This document shows positions 726 to 21,000 of a stretch of DNA of 64,000 bases, piece after piece (positions within the stretch are counted from its first letter, which is position 1; each line of letters begins with the position of its first letter). Source of the stretch: an uncultured Eubacteriales bacterium (GTDB taxonomy: Bacteria; Bacillota; Clostridia; Oscillospirales; CAG-382). Where the stretch lies: the NCBI GenBank assembly GCA_934446675.1, contig CAKSEL010000004.1, forward strand, positions 72,878-136,877, written 5' to 3'. The notes under the pieces are model-generated. The model was not told the DNA's origin, ran no database searches, and worked only from the letters and a program-made list of their open reading frames with translations. A program made the translations under genes and the position numbers.

Positions 726-800
726 TTGATAAAAGACCTGTCACAGCCTCATATGACGCCGGTATATCGCTATCCGGCGCCGCGCAATTAAACCGCATAC

Positions 801-840
801 GACGCATACTTGTTTTATTTTACCGGTATGCGTCTTGTCT
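801..840 (+). terminator. hairpin, possible terminator of the upstream two-gene unit
   Basis: GACGCATAC (801-809) pairs with GTATGCGTC (826-834). The tail TTGTCTTTC is only moderately T-rich. Confidence 0.35.
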
Positions 841-861
841 TTCACGGAAAGGGTGAAATAT

Positions 862-2310
862 ATGTCCCGCAAAACAAGATTTACGCTTATTTTCGCGCTG
901 CTCTGCGCTTTATTCATGTTTAACGCCTTTGCGGACGGTGTGAGTGCCGAAACAAAGGTAAGAGTCGGAATTTTCTACTCCTCGACGGCTTTCAAAGGTC
1001 AGGCTGCCGTAAGCTCCGAAACAGGCTTTTCGATAGGCATCTATGACGAAAACGGAGATTTTTCAGAAACCGCGCTTGAGAACACAGTCAAAAACGCATA
1101 CGTATACATAAACGACGGCGCTCTTGTTTTTGCGTCGGAGGACATGAAAGACGAAGAAAGCAATCCCGACGGCGCAATTTTCCGTGCAGAAGAAGGACAA
1201 AAGCTTATTCTCCGTCCGGCTGCGCTTTCCGATGGTGACGAAAACGGCGAGAATGATGAAGATAACGGAAACGTCGCGGCAGACACCGAAAATTACAGCG
1301 CAGATCTGTCGTATATAGGAATTTCCGGCAAAAAATATCCCGAACTTCTCGAATTTGTAATTGATCCCAACGGCAACATAAAAGTTATAAACGTCGTCGG
1401 GCTTGAACAGTACATAAAAGGCGTTCTGCCGAACGAAGTCTACACGTCATGGGAGCCGGAAGCGCTCAAAGCCGCAGCCGTCGCCACAAGAACATACACA
1501 TTAAAGAGTATGCGCGGCAAACATTCCTCCCTCGGCTTTGACCTATGCCCCACCACCGACTGCCAGGTATATGCCGGCGTTACCAAAACCGCAAAAAGCA
1601 CCGACACAGCCGTTGACGAAACCTACGGACAGGTCTTAACATACAACGGTTCTCTTATAGATGCGGTATATCATGCAATAAGCGGAGGCATAACCGAGAG
1701 CGCATGGGGCGCATGGGGCGGCGACAAAAACGCTCACCCTTATCTTACCGTCGTATCCACTCCGTTTGAAAAATACGGCGAATTAAAGCAGGGACACTGG
1801 TCCTATGTCATTCCGGCAAACACCTTAAAGAGCATTATCGACGCAAAATATCCGGACAAGCTTACCGGCGACATAAAAAGCATAGATTACAGCACCGACG
1901 GCGGCGAGTACATTCACACAATGGTAATTACCGACACCGACGGCAGGCAGATAAAGCTTACAACCTCAAGTGCCGTGCGTTCGCTGTTCAACAAATACGC
2001 GCTCAGCGCAAACTTCACTCTCGGTCGCACCTTTGCTCCGTCCGACGAAAAGACTGACGACACTGTAACCGTTGTAACCACAAAAGGCAGAGAAACTGCC
2101 GACACCGCAGACGGTCTTACTCTTATCACGGCGGACTCGACGGAAAGCTTTTCCGGACTTTCGGACGTATATTTCCTTAACGGCAAAGGCTACGGTCACG
2201 GCGTGGGAATGAGCCAGTTCGGCGCACAGTATGCGGCGCTTGAAGGCTATACCTACAAGCAGATACTTGAAACCTATTATCCCGGAACGCTCATTGTAAG
2301 CAGATATTAA
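862..2310 (+). CDS. spoIID: SpoIID/LytB-domain protein (stage II sporulation protein D-like)
   Basis: Motifs ATRTYTLKSMRGKH, CPTTDCQVY, AVYHAISGGITESA and GYGHGVGMSQFGA. Signal/TM N-terminus. GAAAGGGTG lies 6 nt before ATG 862, so the track TTG 835 is unlikely. Contains an acidic D/E/N-rich insert. Confidence 0.8.
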   Translation: MSRKTRFTLIFALLCALFMFNAFADGVSAETKVRVGIFYSSTAFKGQAAVSSETGFSIGIYDENGDFSETALENTVKNAYVYINDGALVFASEDMKDEESNPDGAIFRAEEGQKLILRPAALSDGDENGENDEDNGNVAADTENYSADLSYIGISGKKYPELLEFVIDPNGNIKVINVVGLEQYIKGVLPNEVYTSWEPEALKAAAVATRTYTLKSMRGKHSSLGFDLCPTTDCQVYAGVTKTAKSTDTAVDETYGQVLTYNGSLIDAVYHAISGGITESAWGAWGGDKNAHPYLTVVSTPFEKYGELKQGHWSYVIPANTLKSIIDAKYPDKLTGDIKSIDYSTDGGEYIHTMVITDTDGRQIKLTTSSAVRSLFNKYALSANFTLGRTFAPSDEKTDDTVTVVTTKGRETADTADGLTLITADSTESFSGLSDVYFLNGKGYGHGVGMSQFGAQYAALEGYTYKQILETYYPGTLIVSRY

Positions 2311-2340
2311 ACTCAAAATCAACCGAAAGGACTGTTATAT

Positions 2341-3012
2341 TTGATAATAAACATACTCTCCGGCGACGTCATGGGACAATATGCCGACAAGCTCGGCTTT
2401 TCCGACAAAGTTATTCCGTTCGGAGAATCAATGATCAGCGGACACCCGACAAGCGACATTTTCAGCAAGGAGTTTATTGCGGAACGCGTCGCAAGTCTGA
2501 AAACAACACCAGAAAAATACAGGAAAAAGATTGTATTTCCGCTTTCAAAGCTGCGTTCGACGGACGAGGTTCACGTCTGGTTCGGCAGAGATATGTACTG
2601 CCAGATAAATCTTGTAACGGTTCTCGCACTGCTTGAAAAAAGCGGCATAAAGTCCGCAGTATTCCACGAGGTTTTCGAGGACGACATGGTTGAAAAGTCA
2701 AAGACCAAAATATCAACCGACGGTTTTACCGACGCATATAACAGTATTCTCGTAAACAGAGAGCCGACCGTGACGGGACTTGACACAGTAAACTCGGCGC
2801 TTGAAATGTATTTTGAGTTTATAAACGCCGAACAAGGTCCGCTCTGCGACTTTATCAGAGAAAACAAAGACGATTCGGTGCTTACGCTGACGCTTAAGAT
2901 CATACGCTCCTATGCCGAATACGGGCTTGGCGACGTCGCCTGCAAAGATCTGATACTGCATGTACGCGAAAAGCAGGGCGATAATCAAAATGCCGAAGCA
3001 GAGGAAAACTGA
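2341..3012 (+). CDS. DUF1835-like hypothetical protein
   Basis: N-terminal MIINILSGDV and EVHVWFGRDMYCQINLVTVLALLEKSG resemble the DUF1835 pattern as I remember it. TTG start with GAAAGGA 9 nt upstream. Confidence 0.5.
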   Translation: MIINILSGDVMGQYADKLGFSDKVIPFGESMISGHPTSDIFSKEFIAERVASLKTTPEKYRKKIVFPLSKLRSTDEVHVWFGRDMYCQINLVTVLALLEKSGIKSAVFHEVFEDDMVEKSKTKISTDGFTDAYNSILVNREPTVTGLDTVNSALEMYFEFINAEQGPLCDFIRENKDDSVLTLTLKIIRSYAEYGLGDVACKDLILHVREKQGDNQNAEAEEN

Positions 3013-3040
3013 GTTTCAGCAAAACAACAACACAAAAACA

Positions 3041-3093
3041 AAGCCGAGTGCAGGGAGAAACAAATCTCCGTTTTACGCACCCGGCTTATTTTT
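3041..3093. terminator. long hairpin between convergent genes (bidirectional terminator)
   Basis: AAGCCGAGTGC...GCACCCGGCTT outer stem with one mismatch, inner GGAGA/TCTCC, then TATTTTT. Confidence 0.6.
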
Positions 3094-3108
3094 CGGTTTT
3101 ATTCAGTT

Positions 3109-3873
3109 TCAGCCGTTAAGCTGCTTTGCCATACCTAAGAGATCTTCGTGCGACAGTTTTCCGTCACTCTGGAAAAGCTCAAAGCTTATTCCTCCGAGTT
3201 CCCACTGAAGATGCTGCATTCTGCTTATCTTTACTTTGTCGGAACCTACGCCGAACACAAGCTCTCCGCGCTGTGCCGCAGCCTTATCCTCATCGGTATA
3301 CTCATAGTTTACCGGAACGAATTTCTGTGTATACGAACAGTATCTGTACTCAACGCCGTCCTCGGAAAATACCGTGCAGCCGGCAGCAGAGCCGTCGCCG
3401 TCCTGTTGCAGCGGAGTTTTATGGTTATCCTGTGAGAGCACGACCACATCTCCGTCTTTTTCGTAATAGAACAGCAGCGACTTATAGTTTTCAGCCGTAT
3501 TTCCGTCCCCGTCCTCAATGGTATTTGTGGCTGTTCTGCCTTCCTTAAAGGTATATACGTTATCAAAGCTTTCGACAAGCTTTGCTTCAAATCCGGCGTC
3601 GCTGACACACTGCTCCCTTGTCGGCAGCGAAGTATAATCGGGGTTTGAGCTTGAGTGTACGCCGATAGACACGGCATTCTTAACTGCGGCAAATACGCCG
3701 ACTCCGAGAACCGCAACTATTGCCGCGGCTGCGAGAATTGTTCTTTTTGACATAAAAATCTTCTCCTTTTTTGTACTTGCGGCGCTTTTTGCCGCTGAGA
3801 TGAGTATTTCTTCCGGAAGATTTTCCGGAACATTGATTTTAAGAAATGCTTTTTTCAGTTCTTCACCTTTCAT
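3109..3873 (-). CDS. membrane anti-sigma-like protein with DUF4367-like C-terminus
   Basis: Single TM ILAAAAIVAVLGVGVFAAV. C-terminal LQWELGGISFELF...SHEDLLGMAKQL resembles DUF4367. It follows the ECF sigma gene with a 1-nt gap. GGAGGG lies 7 nt before ATG 3873; the track TTG 3894 is unlikely. Confidence 0.7.
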   Translation of the reverse strand: MKGEELKKAFLKINVPENLPEEILISAAKSAASTKKEKIFMSKRTILAAAAIVAVLGVGVFAAVKNAVSIGVHSSSNPDYTSLPTREQCVSDAGFEAKLVESFDNVYTFKEGRTATNTIEDGDGNTAENYKSLLFYYEKDGDVVVLSQDNHKTPLQQDGDGSAAGCTVFSEDGVEYRYCSYTQKFVPVNYEYTDEDKAAAQRGELVFGVGSDKVKISRMQHLQWELGGISFELFQSDGKLSHEDLLGMAKQLNG

Positions 3874-3874
3874 T

Positions 3875-4363
3875 TTATTGCCCTCCGTATTCAATTTTCA
3901 GCTTTTGCCGTCCGTACTGAAGTCTTTTTCTGACTGCCGTTTCGGAACACGAAAGAATATCTGCTATCTCGGCGGTTTTATATCCCTCGGCATAAAACAG
4001 ATACAGCACCTTGCGGTATTTTTCGTCAAGCGACATAACGCTCTCCATTATTCCGTATTCCGGCGTATCATTACCGCAGTATTCACGCAGTTCATCAATA
4101 TCGGCACAGCGGTTTCTTATGCGGAATCTGCATATATCCTTTGACTTATTCGCAGCAACCTTCAAAAGCCATGCCTTTTTATGCTCCTCGCCGTTAAAAG
4201 AGGGAGAGCAGGTCATATAGCTCATAAATGTTTCCGAAAGCGCGTCCTGTGCGTCGGCATTATTGCCGAGTATTGAATAGCACAGTCTGAAAAGTGTATT
4301 TGAATACTTATGTACGGTCTGTTCTATTTCTTCATCAGCCGGCCGGACTGAATTTTTTCTCAT
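3875..4363 (-). CDS. ECF-type RNA polymerase sigma-70 family factor
   Basis: Region 2 (LFRLCYSILGNNADAQDALSETF) and region 4 HTH (YKTAEIADILSCSETAVRKRLQYGRQKL). AAAGGAG upstream of ATG 4363. Confidence 0.85.
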   Translation of the reverse strand: MRKNSVRPADEEIEQTVHKYSNTLFRLCYSILGNNADAQDALSETFMSYMTCSPSFNGEEHKKAWLLKVAANKSKDICRFRIRNRCADIDELREYCGNDTPEYGIMESVMSLDEKYRKVLYLFYAEGYKTAEIADILSCSETAVRKRLQYGRQKLKIEYGGQ

Positions 4364-4471
4364 TGCATCAGCTCCTTTCACTATATACACGTTCCGCAGC
4401 TCTGTTTTGTGACACAAAAACAAAAAAATCCGCAGCATATTTCAGCCGCGGATAAAATACCTGTCTTTTAT

Positions 4472-6025
4472 TTACTTTGCGTAGTCAACCTTACGGTTTT
4501 CTCTGATGATCATAACCTTGATCTGTCCGGGATATTCAAGCTCGTTTTCTATCTTCTTTGCAATATCGCGCGCAAGGAATACCATTTCGTCGTCCTTTAC
4601 CTCGTCGGGCTTGACCATGACTCTTATCTCACGGCCCGCCTGTATTGCAAAGCACTTTTCAACTCCGTTGAATTCGGTTGCTATCTCCTCAAGTCTCTGA
4701 AGTCTCTTGATATACGACTCGAGGTTTTCGCGTCTTGCGCCGGGACGCGCTGCGCTTATCGCGTCGGCTGCCTGTACAAGCATTGCAACGACGGTCTGAG
4801 CCTCAACGTCTCCGTGATGCGCCTCGATAGCATGTATAACGTCCTTATTCTCATGATACTTCTTTGCAAGCTCAACGCCTATCTGAACGTGCGAACCGTC
4901 AACGTCATGATCGACAGCCTTGCCTATATCATGCAGCAGACCTGCGCGCTTTGCAAGCATTGCATCTACTCCGAGTTCGCTTGCAAGCATACCTGCGATA
5001 TGTGAAACCTCGATAGAATGTATAAGCACGTTCTGACCGTAGCTTGTACGGTAACGCAGTCTGCCGAGTATCTTTATAAGTTCGGGATTTATGCCGTGAA
5101 CGCCTGTTTCAAACGTAGCCTGTTCACCGCACTGCTTGATATTCTGCTCGACTTCCTTACGGCTCTTTTCAACCATTTCCTCGATACGTGCAGGGTGTAT
5201 TCTGCCGTCGGAAATGAGCTTTTCAAGCGAAAGTCTTGCCACTTCGCGCCTTACCGGATCAAAGCTCGAAACGGTTATCGCCTCGGGCGTATCGTCGATT
5301 ATAAGGTCAACGCCGGTGAGCGTTTCAATGGTTCTGATATTACGTCCCTCGCGTCCTATAATTCTTCCCTTCATCTCGTCGTTGGGAAGCGCAACCGCGG
5401 AAACCGTAGCCTCGCTCACATAGTCGGACGCACATCTCTGAATGGCAAGAGAAATAAGGTTTCTCGCCTTATTATCCGCCTCTTCCTTGTACTCCTGCTC
5501 AATTTCGGCAATCTTCATGGACGCCTCGTGGCGAACCTCGGATTCGACCTTGTTAAGCAGGTATTCCTTTGCCTGTTCGGACGTAAATCCGGAGATCTGT
5601 TCGAGTTTCTTTACCTCGTCGGCAATTATTCCGTCGAGTTCCTCTTTCTTTGCGTCAAGTTCTTTTTCTTTCTTTGCCAGAGCCTCTTCCTTGCGCTCGC
5701 AAGCCTCTGTCTTCTTATCGAGAGACTCTTCCTTCTGCTGGGCGTGTTTCTCAAGACGCGCTACCTCGTTTCTGCGCTCCTTGATCTCACTTTCCATTTC
5801 GTTTTTGTTTTTGAGTATTTCTTCCTTGGCTTCGATCAAAGCCTCTTTTTTCTTGGTCTCGGCGTCCTTCTCGGCTTCTTCGCGGATCTTCTTTGCCTCG
5901 CCGTTTGCATTTTCGATTATGCTCTGTGCGTCCTTGCCCTTTGACTTATCGCTTACGCCTTTTATGACAAAGCCTATTGCAAAACCGATAACAACGCCTA
6001 TGACCGCTGCTATTGCAAGATTCAA
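4472..6025 (-). CDS. rny: ribonuclease Y
   Basis: N-terminal TM, long E/K-rich coiled coil, KH domain ([12 protein letters not shown]) and HD domain (LLHDIGKA). GGAGGTG lies 7 nt before TTG 6025, giving [10 protein letters not shown]...; the track start 6061 is upstream of the SD. Confidence 0.95.
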
Positions 6026-11410: not shown

Positions 11411-12352
11411 ATGAAACAGGCGGTTATAGATATAGGTTCAAACTCGGTAAGGCTTACACTTTACGAAGTGAACGGAACGGAATTCAAAATACTTTTCAGA
11501 GAAAAAATAATGGCGGGACTTGCGGGATATGTTGACGAAAACGGCAATTTAAGCCCTGCCGGAATAGAATGTGCGTGTTCGGGACTTAAAATCTTTTCCG
11601 ATATTTTAAAGTCGCTGCATATTGACAACACCGCAGTCTTTGCAACGGCGTCACTGCGCAACATAAACAACACCGGCGAGGCTGTGTCGCAGATAAAAGC
11701 CGCGTGCGGATACGATATTGAAATTCTGAGCGAAAAGGACGAGGCTTTATGCGGCTACTACGGCGCAATGCGCGAATTTGAGCTGCCTGACGGCGCGTTT
11801 ATCGACGTCGGCGGAGGAAGCACGGAGGTCGTCACGTTTGAAAATGCAAAAGTCATAGACTGTATAAGCTTTCCGATAGGCTCGCTCGGTCTGTATTCGT
11901 CATGCGTAAAGAAAATTCTTCCCGGAAAAGGCTCGAGAGAGCGAATACTCGGCGAAATCAAAAAGCAAACCGAAGGGTGCGAAATCTTTTCGTCATGTGC
12001 AAAGCACAAAGTGCTGACAGGCGTCGGAGGCACGGCAAGAGCAGTGCTCAAAATTGCAAAAAGCTGTTTTGAACTTCCCGAAAGCTGCCGCTGCATATCG
12101 GCGTATCAGCTCGGAAAACTTGCCGATTTTTTATGTTCGGGCTCAAAAAAGGCGTCTGATCTCATACTGAAGCTTGAACCGGACAGAATTCACACTATTG
12201 TTCCAGGAGTTATGATTCTGCATCACATATTCCGCCTATTGGGTGCGGACGAGCTTATTGTCAGCAAATACGGCGTCAGAGAAGGTTATTTATGCACAAA
12301 ACTTTACCCGTCGGCAAAAGAAAATACGACTGCACTCAAAACCGTGAATTAA
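11411..12352 (+). CDS. ppx: Ppx/GppA-family phosphatase (exopolyphosphatase)
   Basis: IDIGSNSVRL N-terminus, IDVGGGSTE, TGVGGTARA (ASKHA fold phosphate loops). Adjacent to ppk1. Confidence 0.85.
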   Translation: MKQAVIDIGSNSVRLTLYEVNGTEFKILFREKIMAGLAGYVDENGNLSPAGIECACSGLKIFSDILKSLHIDNTAVFATASLRNINNTGEAVSQIKAACGYDIEILSEKDEALCGYYGAMREFELPDGAFIDVGGGSTEVVTFENAKVIDCISFPIGSLGLYSSCVKKILPGKGSRERILGEIKKQTEGCEIFSSCAKHKVLTGVGGTARAVLKIAKSCFELPESCRCISAYQLGKLADFLCSGSKKASDLILKLEPDRIHTIVPGVMILHHIFRLLGADELIVSKYGVREGYLCTKLYPSAKENTTALKTVN

Positions 12353-14268
12353 GCTTGCTTGACTTTCACGGACGTGTGCTTTCGCTTGCGGAAAACAGCG
12401 ACATTCCGCCTTTGGAAAGGCTTAAATTTATAAGAATATTCTGCTCAAACGCCGACGAATTTTACAAAGTCCGCATAAACAGGCTTATCAAAGCCGCGAA
12501 AAGCAAAAATATGTGCCCGGACAGAAAATCAGGGCTTTATCCCCAAGAGCTGCTCAAATGTATTCGGCAGAAAACAAGAGAGCTGATAGCAAGGAAAAAA
12601 CTTTTGCTGTGCGGCGTTTCGGAGGAGCTTAAAAGACACGGAATAACGGAAACCGGCGTTTCGGCTCTTTCGGAAAAAGATTACGGGATTTGCGGAAAGT
12701 TTATGGAAAAAAACTTTTGCGGAGCAAAAATTCATTGCATAAAACAAGGAGAAAAAGTATCGCTGAACGGCGGCAGGCTCTACGCAGTATGCTTGACCAA
12801 AAGCAAAAAGCACCCGGCATGCATAGTTGAAATTCCGCCGCAAACCGCGCCTTTTATAAGGCTTTCGGGAGAAGAATTCAGATATACAGCAACCGAAATT
12901 CTGATACTTCATTTTTTGCCGCGCATTTTTAAAGACCTCGGAATAACGGAAATCTGCGTTGCAAAACCCATGCAGAACGGCGACATAACAATACCTGAAC
13001 GCACTTTTCGCGAGCACGGCGGCGATGTATGCAAAGCCGTATTGAAACTTGCAAAAAAGCGTGAGGGTCAGCGTGTTGTCAAACTTGAAGTCTGCAGCAA
13101 AATCTCGCCGATGCTAAAAAAAACACTGTCGGACTTTTCGGGAGTACCTCGGAAATTTATATTTGACGATTCGTATATATCGGATACAAGTTTTTTTGAC
13201 GCGTTTTACCGTGCTGCAAAGAAGAAAAATCCCAGCCTTGCATATTCCCGCCATGTGCCGGTTATTTCCGGCGAATTTCCAGTTACGCAAAGCGTTTCGG
13301 ACATTATAAAACGCCGCGACAGGCTTCTGTTTTATCCGTATGACAGCAACGACACGTTTTTAAGGCTGTTAAAAGAATCGGCATACGATAAAAAGGTCTG
13401 TTCGGTAAAAATGACAGTTTACAGGCTTGCCGAAAATTCCGTTGCCGCAAAGCTTTTATGTCTTGCCGCAGGAAACGGCAAGTCCGTCACGGTTATAATA
13501 GAGCTGCGCGCACGGTTTGACGAACAAAACAATCTCAAATGGGGGCGTATTCTCGAAAAAGCCGGCTGCCGCGTTATTTACAGAACAAGCGGTCACAAAT
13601 GCCATGCAAAAGTGTGCCTTATAACGCAAAAATCAAAAAAAGGCTGTTCGTATATTACTCAGATAAGCACCGGCAACTACAACGAGGTCACAAACACGCT
13701 GTACACCGATCTTTGCTTTTTTACGGCAGACAAAGATATCGGAAAAGACGCGTCGCGCTTTTTTAAAAGCCTTGAAAACGGCGAAGAGCCGTGCGGTTTA
13801 AAACATTTAAACGCCGCTCCTTCCGACATACGAAATGAGTTATTAAAAAGAATAGACGAGCAGGCGAACTGCGGCAAAAACGGATATATCTGCATAAAGG
13901 CAAACTCGCTTTCTGACGGAGAAGTTATAAAAAAATTAATAAATGCCTCAAAAAAAGGCGCCGAAATCCATCTTTATATACGCGGAATATGCTGTATCAA
14001 GCCGAATGTTCCGTTTTCCACCGAAAACATTGAGGTAAAAAGCATTGTCGGCAGATTTTTGGAACACGCGAGAATTTATATGTTCGGAAAAGCGCCCGAC
14101 GCGCACCTCTACATCTCATCGGCAGATCTTATGCCGAGAAATCTGCGCCGCAGAATCGAAATGCTCTGCCCCGTTCACGACAAGGCTGTACGTGAAAAGC
14201 TGTTTTCAATACTATGTGGTCAGAGCGCACAAAACCGCAATTACGCCGCAGATTACAGCGGTGCGTAA
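12292..14268 (+). CDS. ppk: polyphosphate kinase 1
   Basis: NRELSLLDFHGRVLSLAE...PPLERLKFIRIFCSNADEFYKVRI. Two PLD-like HKD motifs (CHAKVCLI; GRFLEHARIYMF). The start overlaps the ppx end by 61 nt. Confidence 0.9.
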   Translation: MHKTLPVGKRKYDCTQNRELSLLDFHGRVLSLAENSDIPPLERLKFIRIFCSNADEFYKVRINRLIKAAKSKNMCPDRKSGLYPQELLKCIRQKTRELIARKKLLLCGVSEELKRHGITETGVSALSEKDYGICGKFMEKNFCGAKIHCIKQGEKVSLNGGRLYAVCLTKSKKHPACIVEIPPQTAPFIRLSGEEFRYTATEILILHFLPRIFKDLGITEICVAKPMQNGDITIPERTFREHGGDVCKAVLKLAKKREGQRVVKLEVCSKISPMLKKTLSDFSGVPRKFIFDDSYISDTSFFDAFYRAAKKKNPSLAYSRHVPVISGEFPVTQSVSDIIKRRDRLLFYPYDSNDTFLRLLKESAYDKKVCSVKMTVYRLAENSVAAKLLCLAAGNGKSVTVIIELRARFDEQNNLKWGRILEKAGCRVIYRTSGHKCHAKVCLITQKSKKGCSYITQISTGNYNEVTNTLYTDLCFFTADKDIGKDASRFFKSLENGEEPCGLKHLNAAPSDIRNELLKRIDEQANCGKNGYICIKANSLSDGEVIKKLINASKKGAEIHLYIRGICCIKPNVPFSTENIEVKSIVGRFLEHARIYMFGKAPDAHLYISSADLMPRNLRRRIEMLCPVHDKAVREKLFSILCGQSAQNRNYAADYSGA

Positions 14269-14292
14269 CACAAAAAAATCAAACAAAAAAAT

Positions 14293-14311
14293 GACGGGAA
14301 AAAAACCCGTC
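14293..14311. terminator. bidirectional terminator between ppk and agrB
   Basis: GACGGG-A7-CCCGTC, with T-rich sequence on both strands after the stem. Confidence 0.7.
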
Positions 14312-14404
14312 TTATATTTTATATTCAAAGCGTTCATATGCGCAATTATATGGATAGGTGATTGTTTTGAGGAAAACGCACAGAACGCCGTGAAAACAAA
14401 ATAA

Positions 14405-14992
14405 CTAATTATTTTCGGCGCATTTTCCGTTATAGGCAATTCCCGCGTACATGAGTATTCCGTCGACAAACAGCGTAACGCACGCCGTTACGGCAAGTTC
14501 ATAATCAAAATACACGCCTGTAAGCGCCGCAGCCGAAAGTATGCTGCTCCAGATAACAGCCCTTATGCGGTTGCTTTTCTTTTGCTTTTCGGTAAGCTTT
14601 TTATTGGGGTGCGCCACGGGTGCGAAAATTATCACCGTCACAATGCAGAAAATGCACATAAGCGCACACATCGGAAACACAAAAGCGCTTTTTGCGGCAA
14701 AGTACGAAACCGCAAGCACCGTACCGAAAGTTACAAGCATTGAGGTTCTGCACAGCGCAAAAGTTTTTGCGTGAAATCCGCCCGAATAGCGTCTTACCGT
14801 CCAGAGAAATGCAAGAAATACGACGGAATCAAAGAATCTTCCGAAAAGCGCGCCTATTATCCCTACCATTGCAAAATTTATAATGTCGGCAAAAATAAGC
14901 TTAAATCCGTAGCTGTATATCTCGCGTTTTTCGTCAGGTATGCATTTTTTCTTTACGTAATAATCCGTTATTCCGTCTGCCAGTCTGTCCAT
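14405..14992 (-). CDS. agrB: AgrB-family accessory gene regulator protein B (autoinducer-peptide processing membrane peptidase)
   Basis: Polytopic membrane protein with VRRYSGGFHAKTFALCRTS, an AgrB-type His...Cys pair with 7-residue spacing. The N-terminus MDRLADGITDYYVKK..EKREIYSYGFKLIF is typical. ATG 14992 is preferred (GGTGG SD). An alternative ATG 15040 has a GGAGG SD buried in a hairpin. Confidence 0.8.
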   Translation of the reverse strand: MDRLADGITDYYVKKKCIPDEKREIYSYGFKLIFADIINFAMVGIIGALFGRFFDSVVFLAFLWTVRRYSGGFHAKTFALCRTSMLVTFGTVLAVSYFAAKSAFVFPMCALMCIFCIVTVIIFAPVAHPNKKLTEKQKKSNRIRAVIWSSILSAAALTGVYFDYELAVTACVTLFVDGILMYAGIAYNGKCAENN

Positions 14993-15113
14993 GTTTCCAC
15001 CGCCGTGTGTAATAGTTATTATGCGCGAAGCGCATTTCATGTGCCCCTCCGGGCACTTTTCATGAAACTTTAGTTTCAATTCATGCCGGAACGGCAATTC
15101 ATTCTTATAGAGT

Positions 15114-15122
15114 ATTATATCA
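15114..15122 (-). promoter_or_regulatory. extended -10 element (TGATATAAT) upstream of agrB
   Basis: Read directly on the minus strand. No good -35, which fits an activator-dependent promoter. Confidence 0.4.
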
Positions 15123-15147
15123 CAGACAGCCGAAAAATGTCGCTTTT

Positions 15148-15189
15148 GGCACAACTAACACAAATAGCGGCACAACTAACACAAAGTGC
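15148..15189. promoter_or_regulatory. perfect tandem direct repeat, 21-bp period (candidate LytTR/AgrA-type activator site)
   Basis: GGCACAACTAACACAAA at 15148-15164 and again at 15169-15185 with a 4-nt spacer. It lies about 25 nt upstream of the agrB -10. The minus strand reads TGTGTTAGT, close to the LytTR 9-mer consensus. Confidence 0.5.
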
Positions 15190-15349
15190 TTGGTTTTTCG
15201 TTCCGTATTCTCACAAAAAGTCACAAATCGTTATATAAATTTTCCTCGGAATTTGACGTTATCCATTATTTCCGGGAGATCTTCACGTTTCCTTTTGCCG
15301 TCAGCCGACGGAAAAAATCTGAGCGGCAAAAAAAGACAGTTTATCTGTG

Positions 15350-15384
15350 AACCAAAACAAAAAAGCCGGATTTCAAGTCCGGCT
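15350..15384 (-). terminator. rho-independent terminator of the P-type ATPase gene
   Basis: Minus strand AGCCGGA-cttgaaa-TCCGGCT followed by TTTTTTGTTTTGG. Confidence 0.7.
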
Positions 15385-15404
15385 CATTATATTAATTTTA
15401 TATG

Positions 15405-17837
15405 TTATTTTTGTAACAATTTTGTTTTAAGCTTCAGATATTTCAGCCGTACAAATTCAAATGCGGCGGAAATATAATTCTGCACCGTCATCATAGGAAG
15501 AATAAGCAGCACCGTAAGAAGAACGCAGCCTATGTCAAGCCTTGATATATTGAAAAACTCAGGCAGCAACGCGATACACAGTATATACAGTATTCCCATT
15601 GCCGAAAACAGAGTTATATGCCACGTGTTGAACGGCTTGCAGACCTTATAGAGCATCATATATCCGGCAGCGGAATAGACTATGCAGGCGACGGTCGACA
15701 TCATCGCGTATTCTATGCCGAAAGACTGTGCGAACACAATAAGACATTCTACGAGGAACACCGCTGTAAGCGCAGTCGGAAACGCACGGTAAAGCACATT
15801 TCGCAGAAACTTTCCCTTTACAAGCTCCTTATTCGGTTCAAGCGCTAAGAAAAACGACGGTATTCCTATCATCATGCACGAGGCGAGCGAGATCTGAACG
15901 GGCTTTAACGGATAGTACGACACGGTTATTATTGAAAGCAGCGTCATAAAGAAAGAAAAAATATTCTTGACCAAGAACATTGACGCCGTTCTTTCTATAT
16001 TATTTATAACGCGTCTGCCCTCATCTACAACGTGCGGCATACTCGAAAAATCGGAATTTACAAGCACCATATCCGAAACATTTGCCGCGGCTTTGCTGCC
16101 CGACGCCATAGCCACGCTGCAATCTGCGTCCTTTAATGCAAGCACGTCGTTTACTCCGTCGCCTGTCATTGCAACGGTATGCTTATTCTTTTTGAGTGCG
16201 CGTATTATCAGCCTTTTCTGTTCGGGGCTTACCCTGCCGAACACGGTACATTCAAGAGTTTTTGCAAAAGTCAGTTCTTCGTCCGAAAGCTTTGACGCGT
16301 CAACGTACTTATCGGCATTCGGTATACCTGCCTTTGCCGCAACAGCCGCGACAGCCGCCGGATTATCACCCGAAATCACCTTTACGTTTACGCCCTGCGA
16401 AGCAAAATACGAAAAAGTCTGCGCCGCGCTCTGTCTTATCGGGTTTGACAGCACCGCAAACAACAGCGGTTCTATTTTAACATTGCAGCCGTTTTCCGAA
16501 AGAACGCTGTCCGAATCTTCGCCGTCAGACACCTTGCCGAAAGCAAGCACGCGTTTACCGCCCGAAATATATTCCGGAATTCTCCCGTCATACTGTGCAA
16601 AGTCACTGCCGAGCAGCATTTCGGGCGCGCCGAAAACATAGGTATTTCCGTCGTCAAGGCTGCACGCGCTGTATTTTGTAAGAGATGAAAACTCTTTCTT
16701 TCGCACTGCTTTGCCAAACGGCTTTATATCATTTTGTACAAAATAATTCGTAACGGCGTCGGAGGTCACGTTCTGCGTTTCCATTGCCGAAACAAGGCTG
16801 CAAAGCTTTTGCAGTGCGCCGCTCTGATCTTGACACACCGGTACTATCTCATCAAGCGCCATTTCAGGCTCGGTTATGGTTCCGGTCTTATCTACGCATA
16901 TGACGTCTACTCTTGCAAGGCTCTCTATGCACTTCATATCGTGAACCAGCGTTCCGCCCTTTGCAAGTCTTATTGTGCTTGCGGCAAGCGCTACGCTTGT
17001 AAGCAGATACAGTCCTTCGGGTATCATGCCTATCGACGAGGCAACGGCGTTCTCCACGCTTTCCTTTACCGAAAGTCCGAGCGTTGCGTGCTGATTGAAG
17101 TACATTATCAGCGCAAACGGGATTATGATTATGCCTATTGCCATTATGAGTATATTAAGCGAACGCATCATTCCGGGACGGGTGCGTTTTTTGGTCTTTT
17201 TCGCGTCGGACATCAGCCTTGAGGCAAAGGATTCATCTCCCACGGCGTCAAGTCTTGCGCGGCACTTTCCCGACACCGCAAAGCTTCCCGAAAGCAGTCT
17301 GTCGCCGGTTACTTTTTTTATCTCGTCCGCCTCTCCCGTGACAAGCGACTCGTTTACGAAAATCTCTCCGCTTACAACTACCGCGTCGGCAGGTATCTGA
17401 TCGCCGCTTTCAAGCTCTGTTATATCGTCGAGTACAAGATCTTCGCTGTTTACCGTCATCTTTATGCCGCCGCGTATAACATTGCTTGTCGGGCACGCCA
17501 TGAGGTTAAGCTTATCGAGCATTTTCCGCGAACGCAGTTCCTGCACTATGCCTATTACGGTATTTGAAACCACAACGCCCAAAAAAGCCATATGATTATA
17601 CGACCTCTGCCACAGAAGCACTGCGGCAAACACAAAGAAAATTATATTGAAATAAGTAAATACATTCTTTGTTATTATCTTTGCCGTGCCGTAACGGTCG
17701 TCGCCTGCGGTTTTATTGGTAAGGTTCTGCGCCTGTCTTTCGCTCACCTTTTGTGCGTCAAGTCCGTATTCCGGATCGGGCGTATAACGGTACACCGTAT
17801 ATTCGGCTTTTGAATTTTCCTGCTTTTTATTCAACAC
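15405..17837 (-). CDS. cation-translocating P-type ATPase (HAD-IC family)
   Basis: DKTGTIT phosphorylation motif, TGEA actuator motif, MTGDGVNDVLALKDAD hinge, about 10 TM helices. GTG start. Confidence 0.9.
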   Translation of the reverse strand: MLNKKQENSKAEYTVYRYTPDPEYGLDAQKVSERQAQNLTNKTAGDDRYGTAKIITKNVFTYFNIIFFVFAAVLLWQRSYNHMAFLGVVVSNTVIGIVQELRSRKMLDKLNLMACPTSNVIRGGIKMTVNSEDLVLDDITELESGDQIPADAVVVSGEIFVNESLVTGEADEIKKVTGDRLLSGSFAVSGKCRARLDAVGDESFASRLMSDAKKTKKRTRPGMMRSLNILIMAIGIIIIPFALIMYFNQHATLGLSVKESVENAVASSIGMIPEGLYLLTSVALAASTIRLAKGGTLVHDMKCIESLARVDVICVDKTGTITEPEMALDEIVPVCQDQSGALQKLCSLVSAMETQNVTSDAVTNYFVQNDIKPFGKAVRKKEFSSLTKYSACSLDDGNTYVFGAPEMLLGSDFAQYDGRIPEYISGGKRVLAFGKVSDGEDSDSVLSENGCNVKIEPLLFAVLSNPIRQSAAQTFSYFASQGVNVKVISGDNPAAVAAVAAKAGIPNADKYVDASKLSDEELTFAKTLECTVFGRVSPEQKRLIIRALKKNKHTVAMTGDGVNDVLALKDADCSVAMASGSKAAANVSDMVLVNSDFSSMPHVVDEGRRVINNIERTASMFLVKNIFSFFMTLLSIITVSYYPLKPVQISLASCMMIGIPSFFLALEPNKELVKGKFLRNVLYRAFPTALTAVFLVECLIVFAQSFGIEYAMMSTVACIVYSAAGYMMLYKVCKPFNTWHITLFSAMGILYILCIALLPEFFNISRLDIGCVLLTVLLILPMMTVQNYISAAFEFVRLKYLKLKTKLLQK

Positions 17838-17959
17838 TTTTTCATTATCCTTTTTGTTTACAATAATATACTCAGTATTTTATCACCGTTTTTGCATTTG
17901 GGATATGAAAATGTGTAAAATTTACAAATTATTACAAATTGGCGCCCTGTTCTTTTTCG

Positions 17960-17994
17960 CAAAGGAAAACCCTGTCCGCTTTTGGCAGACAGGG
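17960..17994 (-). terminator. rho-independent terminator
   Basis: CCCTGTC (17970-76) pairs with GACAGGG (17988-94). The minus strand is followed by TTTTCCTTTG. Confidence 0.55.
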
Positions 17995-18085
17995 AAGGAG
18001 AGAGTAGAGCGATTTACTTATTAAAGCAAATCTGTAATCACACATTTATATAATGCGTGGTTAGTCTGATTGAATTTTTCCGGGA

Positions 18086-21000
18086 TCACATCTCAGATGT
18101 TTCCGATATTTTCCCGAACGCATATACCGCGAAGTTATCCGCGTCAAGCTCTGCGGCTTTTCTTATGCAGAGGTCAGCCTCGCCGTATTTTTCCATACCG
18201 TACAGGGCATATGCTTTAAGAATATTGCCGGCAACAAGGTTATTCTTTACAATATCAAGCTCGAACGGCATGGGGCTTGGCGAACCTACGCCGTAATATG
18301 TGCGCATATCGCAGTTATTTATGAGGTTATCCGCGCTTTCTTCCATTTCGTCAAGAACTGCGTTTGCCTCGTCGTTCTTTCCGAGTTCTTTAAGCGCAAG
18401 CGCCCTGAACAGCGATATTTCCGACACTGCGGCTTTATATTCGGCTGCCTTTTCGAGATCTGCCGTATATTTTTCCGTATTATTCTCACGCTGTTCAAGC
18501 TTTGCAAGATAATAGTATATATGAGCCTCCTGATTGAAGAAGGTCTTAGCCTCGCCGTAGGATTTCGGCATATTTATGCCGTCGTTATAAATTTTCCTTG
18601 CTTTGTCAAGCTTTCCGTCCTTTACAAGCTCGTTTGCATAGAGCACATGCATCCATGCGTGCTGTTTGGTAAGCTTTCCTTCTCCGCCTTCATAGATGTG
18701 GAAGTGCTTTGATCTTGCCATATCTATTGCCTCTTTATACATTCCCTTCTGAGAAAGCAGAGTAAGCTTATCGAGATAGCAGTCGTCGCGTTTGGAGAGA
18801 AGTTCGGGGTACTTGTCGTACACTTCAAGTCTTTCATCGATAGAATGACCGCTGTTTTTAAGCAGCTGTTCGTATTCGAGCAGCAGTCTCGGATCTTCGG
18901 GACGGTATTTCAGCGCATTCTGCATACATTCGAGCGCCTTATCCGGCATATTTGCTTTATCAAAGTAATAAAGCGAGAGATTTCTCCATGCCTTGCCGTG
19001 TTTTTCATCTGTTCTTACGCACTCATTCCAGAGTTGTGCAGCCTCGTCATATCTGAACTTATCGTAAAACAGATTTCCGAGATAATAGCGCGCGTTTGCG
19101 GCATTTTTATCTTTATTCACAGCGTATTCAAGCACGGCAATATCCGAAAGCTCCGACGGGAAACAATATCCCGTATCAAGCTTTTCGGCAGACTTTATAT
19201 ACTCGCCTTTTCCCGTAAGATATGCAAGATAGTAGTTTACGAGAGGACTTGCCTTATCGGCAAATCCGAGAGCATAGACCGCGTCCTCATTAAATCCGGC
19301 TTTCATATAATCTCTTGCGGTATCGAGCATATTTTCTGCCTTTTTTGCAAACTGCGCAATCTTATCCGTTACGTTTTCATAGTGCGAATACTCGACAAGC
19401 GCAAGCACGTCAAGCTTATCGTCGTTGACGCCTTCAAGTGCGCTGCTCTGTGCAAGAGGACTTCCGAGCTTTCTCAGAACCGCGCTCTTTAAATTCTTAG
19501 CCTTTGTATGCCCCTTATTGAGTCCAAGGGATTCGTCAAGCTTTTGCAGTGCCGAATCATAATCTCCGTTACGGCAGTCTATGCACGCAAGCTCATACAT
19601 TGCGGCGCTTCTGTGAGCATAGTTCCATGCCGCCATATACAAAACGTCATAAGCTTTGTCATATTCTCCGAGATATTCCAGTGCCACGCCTTTAAGATAG
19701 AGTGCCTCGGTATCCGTCGGGTGCATATTTCTGCTTGTAAGGCGCTCTATTGCCTTATCGCAGTATTTTACGCAGTCATTAAACTTTCCGTTTTTGAGCG
19801 ACAGACGCGCCATAGACGTGTTGCATCGTATATCGCCGCCGTCTCTCTTTAAGCCTTCAAGGTAGTAATCTTCGGGCTTATAGTTATGCTGCTTATACTG
19901 TTCGAGATGATAGCCGTTGATATAAAGCTCCTCTACGGTCTTATACTCGCAGGGGCGTTTTACCGGCTTTCTTACCTCTATGGGCTGCTTTTTGCCGCGC
20001 TTATAAGGCTTATATTCCACAAGCACTTTGCCGTCGGCAGAAGAGAGAGTTACGGTTATATTATGAATATCGGAAATCTCTGTGTCTATGTACTTATGGT
20101 ACGCTTTATCGGGCGACATATCGGTATTTTCCGAATAAACCGTCTTTTGTCCGTCGCGCACCTCAATTTTGCAATTTTCAAATACGCCCGTTACGTTAAA
20201 TCCGACATACAGCTTATTATCGCGCTTTTCAACATTTACGCAGGCGTCAATAGTCGCGTTCTTTATCTCGCCTATCTCGCGAACGGGATACCAATACTGT
20301 TCAAATTCGCGCGTTTCATACGGTGCAATCCAGGTAAAGTCAGGCTGATTGTCGGTATACACGCCTGTCATAAGCTCAATATAAGGTCCGTTCTTATCAG
20401 TAAGGTTCGAGCACCACATATCTCCGAAATCGCCTGTTCCCCAATGCCACATTTTCTTGCCGGGCGAGATGTGGTGGTTTGCTACGGTCGCAATACCCTT
20501 GCCGAGTCCCGTATCATATCCGCTTATAAAGTCCATATCCGACTGTCCCTGAGATATAAGATAGGACGAGGGTACTTTTACGGCGTCGTAGTGCGAAAGG
20601 TCGGTTCCCTTGCCGAAATTATACGGGCGCGCGGTCTTATATATACCCTTTGCTATGGGCCATTCGAGTACGGCGCGTCTGTCATGGTCGTTTACCCATT
20701 CGCAGTCCGGCGGAAACACGGTGCGGTAATTGTTGTTTACGGGAACTGCGAGGTTTGCCCACCACATAAAAAGCTGCGGAAGGCTTGTTCTGTTATAAAC
20801 GCGTACTTTTGCCTTTATGTAGCTTCTGCCTTTATCGAGCGTGATACCTGCCATACCCTTCATTCTTCCGAAAGGCTCGACTTCACCGGTCCAGACGGTC
20901 TTTCCGCCGTCGGGATTTTCTTCGCAAACCGCTTCAAGCGGCATAAACGTCGTAGGTCTGTGGTGCTGCGGCCAGTTGAACTCTATTCCGCCGGAGATCC

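Follow-up and report, generated by a model that had tools for sequence, protein, structure and literature searches.

The 64,000-nucleotide stretch analysed here (hereafter the window; contig CAKSEL010000004.1 of an uncultured Eubacteriales bacterium, positions 72,878 to 136,877) carries an agrB gene that stands alone, with a perfect direct repeat upstream of its promoter. The product of this gene is a predicted membrane cysteine peptidase, which would cleave and cyclise the AgrD precursor of an autoinducing peptide. The elements on which the argument depends are listed below, conservation being given for L008, part of an orthologous locus (L007/L008) of another organism.

14405..14992, minus strand: agrB coding sequence, 195 aa, AgrB-family membrane peptidase, with ATG at 14992 and stop at 14405
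15114..15122, minus strand: extended -10 TGATATAAT, kept at 9/9 positions in L008
15138..15143, minus strand: weak -35-like GCGACA (4/6), with an 18-nt spacer to the -10; it lies inside a block of which 47/48 positions are kept in L008
15148..15164, minus strand: promoter-proximal half-site TTTGTGTTAGTTGTGCC, a putative AgrA/LytTR box
15169..15185, minus strand: promoter-distal half-site TTTGTGTTAGTTGTGCC, 21 bp upstream of the proximal copy

The agrB product matches the Pfam family AgrB (PF04647) over residues 6-173 with 126.8 bits (E 8.2e-37), the family cut-off being 23, and a Kyte-Doolittle scan over 19 residues, which is a crude measure, gives at least four strongly hydrophobic segments, as fits a polytopic membrane protein. 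The original prediction, made from the window's letters, had read the His and Cys spacing typical of AgrB in the motif GGFHAKTFALC, and this reading is sound: H74 and C81, the catalytic pair, seven residues apart, are invariant across an alignment of 34 homologous sequences, as are R67, G71, G72, A75, P125 and K131. In Staphylococcus aureus AgrB the catalytic pair is H77/C84, of which H74/C81 would be the counterparts. Searches of the PDB by sequence and by profile returned no AgrB structure.

By the arrangement that defines a canonical locus, agrD would lie downstream of agrB or overlap it and agrC and agrA would be adjacent; in the window neither is the case. Pfam scans of 35 window open reading frames (ORFs) gave no match to the LytTR, Response_reg or HATPase_c_5 domains, and hidden Markov models (HMMs) made from the AgrA, AgrC and AgrD sequences of relatives with a canonical locus found no match in the six-frame translation of the 64 kb, the best E-value for AgrD being 0.76, with no AgrD-like ORF. 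One 41-aa ORF at the 3′ side of agrB (MNALNIKYK...) was considered as agrD and rejected: it crosses the terminator into ppk and has no Shine-Dalgarno (SD) sequence, and in the 86% identical ortholog its ATG is lost and its frame shifted by indels. Both the claim that no agrC or agrA is in sight and the claim that no AgrD-like ORF adjoins agrB are upheld by these scans and by that rejection.

The 17-mer GGCACAACTAACACAAA is present in two perfect copies (15148-15164 and 15169-15185) whose starts are 21 bp apart, and the direct repeat with its 21-bp period was thereby verified in its coordinates. It is the sole perfect close-range direct repeat of at least 13 nt in the 64 kb; none of 20 shuffled sequences contained a close-range direct repeat of at least 17 nt, and no further copy of the 17-mer, with up to three mismatches, was found in the window. 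The proximal half-site lies 28 nt upstream of TGATATAAT, the equivalent of which (TGnTAnnnT) is found in 11 of 14 related operator-promoters. This promoter had been described as an extended -10 with no -35, and the first part holds while the second is nearly right, as the weak GCGACA exists. A weak -35, an 18-nt spacer and an extended -10 suggest that the agrB promoter is activator-dependent. On the assumption of a transcription start some 7 nt past the -10, the half-sites would span approximately -41 to -57 and -62 to -78, and the G of their GTT cores would fall at about -52 and -73.

This geometry, proposed earlier to be of the LytTR type, agrees with the site spacing in the literature for AgrA, ComE and RgaR. 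Specifically, the S. aureus AgrA repeats are 12-13 bp apart and lie upstream of the -35 (PMC5600425), the AgrA-dependent promoters P2 and P3 have suboptimal spacers of 18 and 20 nt (PMC4227749), ComE binds 9-bp repeats separated by a 12-mer linker (PMC4005675), and the repeats of Clostridioides difficile RgaR, which activates a distal agrB1D1, have a critical G at -51 and -72, 21 bp apart (PMC10602386). The accompanying claim, that the minus-strand half-site is close to the LytTR consensus, held only loosely: read by eye, TGTGTTAGT agrees with [TA][AC][CA]GTTN[AG][TG], which is the S. aureus 9-mer consensus, at 6 of 8 specified positions, and the positions conserved in the clade of the window are TGTGT...TGCC rather than that consensus.

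The organism represented by L007/L008 has the same ATPase-agrB-ppk synteny and an AgrB that is 86% identical and likewise orphan. Between the window and this ortholog the ratio of nonsynonymous to synonymous substitution rates (dN/dS) of agrB is 0.096 at a dS of 0.82 (ppk 0.22, ppx 0.11), and selection has acted on the orphan gene because both of the lineages compared have the orphan arrangement. Judged by these ratios agrB appears to be in use and under purifying selection, and it is very unlikely to be a decaying remnant. A 48-nt block comprising both half-sites, their spacer and AAAAGCGACAT is identical at 47 of 48 positions between the window and L008, while the surroundings are far less similar (64% over 146 aligned nt upstream, 7/14 between the block and the -10, 35% in the leader); by our own calculation, at least 47 matches in 48 at a background of 64% have a probability of about 1e-8. 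These figures point to the 17-mer repeat being a conserved operator. An absence of the repeat from orthologous loci had been named beforehand as an outcome that would speak against its role, and the ortholog with 86% AgrB identity retains it.

Seven more distant agrB loci, with AgrB identities of 38-53%, give the operator its context (L010, L016, L019, L021, L032, L050 and L027). All except L027 consist of a gene for a LytTR regulator, a gene for a HATPase_c_5 kinase, a terminator, agrB and a small agrD-like ORF of 45-58 aa that overlaps or abuts the agrB stop; in L027 agrC, agrB and agrD are seen and the sequence read ends inside agrC, so that agrA would fall outside the part that was read. 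Two direct half-sites resembling TTGTGT-N6-TGCC precede agrB in all seven, with a period of 20-21 that is found in 14 related sites, and the proximal half-site ends 28-30 nt before a -10 hexamer that is usually TGnTAnnnT; in the six complete loci the pair sits between the agrC terminator and agrB. The half-sites vary by organism (TTGTGTAAAGTACGCC, GTGTAAAGTATGCC, TTGCGTTAACCGTCAC, TTGTGTCTATCATGCC, TTGTGTAAGTTGTGCC) around a common core TGTGT...(T/C)GCC, and that of the window, TTGTGTTAGTTGTGCC, is one base off that of the canonical locus L032. Because the same half-site module precedes agrB in these relatives, the window promoter would be the P(agrBD) promoter of related agrA-agrC / agrB-agrD loci.

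Some relatives show further arrangements of the same parts. L027 belongs to a Hadza metagenome-assembled genome (MAG; CAKSCV010000012.1), in which approximately 5 kb (reverse-complement coordinates 734-5790) separate agrC from the unit of operator, agrB and agrD; the insert contains opposite-strand small ORFs of unknown function and looks like a locus caught partway through breaking up. Another copy of the operator (L030) is found in this MAG, its downstream gene lying beyond the sequence read. At L131:2468-2810 an agrA-agrC pair with a TGTGTAAAGTATGCC-type operator is followed by only the truncated N-terminus of an agrB and then by a Cu_amine_oxidN1 protein, and at L128:3470-3640 and L129:2632-3799 agrA-agrC are found without agrBD, the TGTGTAAAGTATGCC-type operator driving a leucine-rich-repeat surface protein. 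A full agrA-agrC-agrB-agrD cassette stands at L134:228-10181 beside reverse-transcriptase, TraG/T4SS coupling protein, RepA_N and resolvase genes, and is apparently carried by a conjugative or mobile element. Finally, surface proteins with SLH or Cu_amine_oxidN1 domains directly follow agrD in the canonical loci L016, L019 and L021.

The operator was also searched for in a collection of one genome per species (185,579 species, 596 Gb), using the pattern TTGTGT-N6-TGCC-N(4-6)-TTGTGT-N6-TGCC, which has 20 specified bases and for which about 3 chance matches are expected in the whole collection. Of the 33 loci returned, many are tandem arrays in unrelated phyla. The genome named 'uncultured Clostridiales bacterium UMGS1387' has three matches on three contigs, one of which (L024) is the agrB locus itself, 94.8% identical to window positions 11724-19728 and with a 100% identical AgrB; by these identities UMGS1387 would be about the same species as the window genome. 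At the second match (L042) the operator reads TTGTGTAAGTTGTGCC-GCTAT-TTGTGTTAGTTGTGCC and lies 28 nt before TATAAT, followed by a good SD and a 43-aa ORF. The third (L039) reads TTGTGTAAGATGTGCC-ATTAT-TTGTGTCAGTTGTGCC before TGCTATACT, its target gene being cut by the end of the sequence read. An independent metagenome assembly, ERZ835980, holds the same three sites on three contigs of similar coverage. The search for further operator copies beyond the window, which the original prediction had proposed, thus returned two more in UMGS1387, repeated in ERZ835980.

The 43-aa ORF at the second site is a candidate for the missing precursor:

L042:2051-2182: stand-alone agrD, 43 aa, MFELIGSLLTGAAYDAAIDSVGLASCNGLYEMKMPEALNEIAK, between ychF and a gene for an alpha/beta small acid-soluble spore protein (SASP)

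Against a clade AgrD HMM built from four canonical-position peptides it scores E 2.9e-13 (L042) and 3.1e-13 (L081), and its motif GLASCNGLYEMKMPEAL aligns with GLASIGGMHQMKEPEAL. It also follows the AgrD pattern, with a central Ser/Cys and, approximately 10 residues later, a Pro-containing acidic tail. The curated models do not match it at thresholds of E 0.01 (Pfam) and E 0.1 (NCBIfam), and neither do the NCBIfam autoinducer models match the canonical-position peptides of L010 and L027; because these fail as well, the NCBIfam AgrD models appear to miss this clade. The AgrD-like peptides of the clade (L042, L010, L016, L019, L021, L027, L032, L050) share (G/D)(L/V)ASxxGM(H/Y)xMxEPE with a conserved Ser, which suggests lactone rings. 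An extra Cys is found in the stand-alone AgrD only, among the peptides compared.

The promoters of agrB and the stand-alone agrD agree over an unbroken run of 33 nucleotides that takes in the spacer GCTAT, for which the 86% ortholog has GTTAT; a single ancestral P(agrBD) may thus have been duplicated, or gene conversion may have acted. Traces of the second copy can also be recognised in assemblies. Three k=31 Logan contigs with identical AgrB (L001, L002, L004) all start at TGTGCCGCTATTTGTGTTAGTTGTGCCAAAA, the first 31-mer past three 31-mers common to the two promoters (L042:1941-1980), and to judge from this coincidence such starts are the signature of the second operator copy in those samples. 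Copy-number variation or inversion within the repeat was rejected as the cause of the breaks in the Logan contigs, which the shared agrD-promoter 31-mers explain more simply. The point at which an assembly breaks can, in this way, expose another copy of the operator. In two ENA contigs (L003, L006) the break lies 18 nt upstream of that in the Logan contigs.

In ERZ835980 the third target is present in full: its first gene encodes a TPR protein of 311 aa, and the next one a CAP-domain protein of 605 aa that has three SLH repeats. This operator copy (L078:4942-7964, also L039:7672-8000) is divergent from a gene of the XRE-type helix-turn-helix (HTH) class, and a protein search with the 58-aa N-terminal fragment of the target returned no homologues. 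A candidate operator stands in front of all three targets, the TTGTGT(T/A)AGTTGTGCC pair being a predicted LytTR target, and the circuit is to be regarded as dispersed because agrB, the TPR / CAP-SLH operon and the stand-alone agrD each have a copy at a separate site.

The explanation that best accommodates these results, and that we hold to be probable, is a working agrB under an AgrA-type, LytTR-activated promoter in a lineage where the agr locus has been dispersed, with AgrD processed in trans and auto-induction kept. A phosphorylated AgrA-type LytTR regulator, encoded elsewhere in the genome by an agrC/agrA pair, would bind the two half-sites as a tandem dimer and recruit or reposition RNA polymerase on the poor -35 promoter, thus turning agrB on; a regulator of this type is the most likely switch because a LytTR regulator adjoins the module in relatives. 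The same regulator would turn on the unlinked agrD and the TPR / CAP-SLH surface-protein operon. In this lineage, then, the locus would have been taken apart, agrB being kept between the P-type ATPase gene and ppk and agrD becoming monocistronic elsewhere. AgrB would cut the AgrD tail, probably before YEMKMPEAL, judging by alignment with the Pro-containing tails of other AgrDs, and would cyclise a five-residue ring, either SCNGL or CNGLY. Signal production may still be auto-induced, although the genes are apart, because agrB and agrD would answer to the same regulator. This would be an ordinary agr quorum-sensing system with scattered genes, rather than a new kind of system. The original idea that a LytTR-type operator ties the orphan agrB to a circuit encoded elsewhere finds support in the presence of the module in the relatives, in the ortholog and before the stand-alone agrD.

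The remaining features of the locus, in the agrB leader, the 3′ untranslated region (UTR) and the flanks, are the following:

14293..14311, either strand: bidirectional terminator-like hairpin, common to agrB and the convergent ppk
14312..14404, minus strand: agrB 3′ UTR, 93 nt from the agrB stop to the terminator, with a long AU-rich stem (arms 14377-14404 and 14315-14342)
14996..15004, minus strand: SD GGCGGTGGA, 3 nt before the ATG, read from the sequence
15021..15035, minus strand: leader hairpin 2, ATGCGC-TTC-GCGCAT, the sole leader hairpin kept in the 86% ortholog (there GCGC-GTT-GCGC)
15041..15056, minus strand: leader hairpin 1, GTGCCC-GGAG-GGGCAC, with GGAG in the loop; strain-variable and unconserved
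15363-15385: terminator-like hairpin closing the P-type ATPase gene

Given the deduced transcription start, the leader is approximately 115 nt long. Its SD GGCGGTGGA is kept in L007/L008 and in the strain variants, save for one substitution in L122. Two longer agrB starts (a 249-aa TTG start and a 211-aa start, MKCAS...) were rejected, as the SD precedes MDRL instead; moreover, the MKCAS ATG reads TTG in L001/L003/L006 and is absent in L007. The end coordinate of 15189 that the earlier finding had used takes in the promoter beyond the coding sequence. Both hairpins that it had described in the leader are present, whereas the first is not conserved: L002 and L004 have lost it by deletion, L024 has a damaged form, and L007/L008 have none. 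A role for hairpin 1 as a riboregulator was rejected, since conservation fails across strains and in the 86% ortholog, and the suggestion that it buries an alternative SD finds no support in the comparison, because strains with identical AgrB have it deleted or damaged. More generally, the leader (15021-15105; L001-L004, L024, L122) varies by indels of short modules among contigs with identical AgrB. These modules approximate 'ATGAAWW + perfect 4-6-bp hairpin' (GCCG-TTC-CGGC, GAAAC-TAAA-GTTTC, GTGCCC-GGAG-GGGCAC), and the leader length varies from +32 nt in L004 to -16 nt in L002, with one hairpin only in the 86% ortholog.

The 3′ UTR, by comparison, is approximately 90% identical in the 86% ortholog, against 64% for the upstream flank, with a stem of about 25 bp. 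It occupies the position held by agrD in canonical loci and contains no conserved ORF, and in an Rfam scan of 14150-15450 no family came close to its gathering score; the stretch may serve as a stabilising 3′ structure or be a small RNA. The upstream neighbour of agrB is a P-type ATPase gene (15405-17837) of the same orientation, and downstream lie ppx and ppk, convergent with agrB. That these genes flank agrB and that it is bracketed by terminators had been recognised earlier, and both statements agree with the Pfam scans and with the hairpins at 14293-14311 and 15363-15385. The ORFs of ppx (11411-12352) and ppk (12292-14268) overlap by 61 nt (12292-12352), an overlap also called in L001, L007 and L009, which is either genuine or means that the true ppk start is further downstream. 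The neighbourhood is core chromosome, with RNase Y, Obg, SecDF, SpoIID, a sigma factor and MetK among the 35 larger ORFs scanned with Pfam.

Several observations weigh against an AgrA-type circuit. The regulator family is inferred from relatives, and HMM searches found no agrA or agrC in the window, in the three operator-bearing UMGS1387 stretches or in the ERZ835980 loci, none of which amounts to a whole-genome search. Of the AgrA homologues that could be traced, some come from other organisms, where the operators differ, and the rest are part of canonical cassettes. The half-site resembles the S. aureus AgrA consensus only loosely, and the AgrD-like peptides of the clade, unrecognised by the AgrD models of Pfam and NCBIfam, are identified as such by where they lie, by their size and by the motifs they share. 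When the AgrA of L032 was used to search for homologues, it returned 120 proteins, at 41-56% identity when the cluster of the query is excluded, and none was attributable to this species. Among the candidates rejected as its regulator, P0138 and P0123 are agrAC pairs without agrBD that have the operator TGTGTAAAGTATGCC and come from other organisms, P0122 and P0089 are on short contigs from unrelated samples, and P0066 belongs to a canonical cassette on a conjugative element. The operator scan was not expected to find agrA and agrC, because the agrA promoter of L010, the one canonical locus in which it was read, looks constitutive (TTGACT...TGGTATAAT).

The failure to locate agrA and agrC for this species leaves some room for the repeat to be bound by a regulator other than AgrA, such as an orphan LytTR protein, a VirR/RgaR-like protein that responds to some other signal or one with another fold, in which case the species may be without agrC/agrA, and agrB and agrD would receive a non-cognate input with no auto-induction. 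There is a precedent, as agrB1D1 of C. difficile 630 is under the unlinked RgaS-RgaR (PMC10602386), and related cassettes ride conjugative elements (L134), so that sensors come and go. Nevertheless, six related loci that have an operator of this type also have, immediately before it, the genes of a LytTR regulator and an AgrC-type kinase (in L027 the reading goes back to agrC only), the half-site of the species is one base from that of the canonical L032, and the hunt that failed was no search of a whole genome; such a regulator is, on balance, unlikely. A bolder form of this idea, which we rate slightly lower still, holds that the lineage has lost its own agrC/agrA, that the three operators answer to an orphan or horizontally supplied LytTR protein, and that the 3′ UTR which replaced agrD could be a regulatory RNA. 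If the loss were true, gating would be foreign or non-cognate, and the cell would be a signal producer without a receptor, or an eavesdropper.

Relatives in which the locus has visibly come apart (the truncated agrB of L131, the leucine-rich-repeat target of L128/L129, the 5-kb insertion of L027), together with the lack of agrA, agrC and agrD in the window, could instead suggest that an agr locus broke and left the orphan agrB as a decaying remnant, the repeat being a leftover promoter of no further importance. Against this stand an intact agrB ORF with all invariant residues, a dN/dS of 0.096 over a dS of 0.82 between two orphan lineages, an operator conserved at 47/48 next to flanks at 64%, and an intact agrD with the same operator in the same species, so that decay has very little to recommend it. 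Least probable of all is that AgrB processes a substrate other than AgrD. No agrD lies beside agrB, it is true, and a conserved non-coding 3′ UTR takes the usual place of agrD; however, an AgrD of the family exists in the same species behind the same operator, with 33 identical promoter nucleotides, and AgrB retains all family-invariant residues. Trans-processing of an unlinked AgrD by one AgrB has, moreover, been proposed for Clostridium autoethanogenum (PMC8748961). The non-canonical substrate offered as an option in the original prediction is therefore unnecessary.

Compared with its canonical relatives (L010, L016, L019, L021, L032, L050), the system of the window has a homologous AgrB, the same promoter module before agrB and an AgrD of the same peptide family (SxGLASxxGM(H/Y)xMxEPE), but differs in that no agrA/agrC lies upstream and no agrD downstream of agrB, and in that agrD is monocistronic elsewhere, with an operator of its own. 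Clostridium perfringens provides another case in which signal-production genes stand apart from sensors. In C. difficile Agr1, likewise, signal genes are without adjacent sensors and are activated through direct repeats with critical G residues 21 bp apart, a handful of operator copies making up a small regulon; there, however, the activator is RgaS-RgaR, and agrB1 and agrD1 are adjacent in one operon, whereas here they are unlinked (PMC10602386). The agr genes of C. autoethanogenum likewise form scattered, incomplete sets, one of which, Agr system 2 (agrD2-agrC2 without agrB), has an agrD at a distance from the single agrB of the species, implying trans-processing, as here (PMC8748961). That species, unlike the present one, has a second agrD in the agrB1 operon, while the only agrD detected here is unlinked, monocistronic and behind the same operator. 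With S. aureus P2/P3 the window shares a direct-repeat pair that precedes a poor -35, a spacer of suboptimal length (18 nt here), a start-to-start period of about 21-22 bp and, presumably, the positive-feedback logic on signal production (PMC5600425, PMC4227749). The differences are that the half-site is TTGTGTTAGTTGTGCC here and ACAGTTAAG-like there, that the operon order there is agrBDCA, and that no RNAIII-type divergent effector is seen at the window locus.

C. difficile and acetogenic clostridia already provide documented cases of agr sets that are dispersed or incomplete, and the known picture is refined here rather than changed. The distinctive feature of the present case is that agrB and agrD form two monocistronic units at different sites of the core chromosome, behind duplicated operators, whereas canonical loci were found in the nearest relatives examined. 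Genomes are normally mined in the expectation that agrD adjoins agrB (PMC8251862); mining on this basis would miss the peptide described here and would dismiss the agrB as an orphan. The three copies of the operator outline a defined three-promoter regulon, consisting of agrB, agrD and the TPR / CAP-SLH surface-protein operon, and in uncultured gut Clostridia the operator sequence can be used as a probe with which the scattered members of an agr regulon are brought together.

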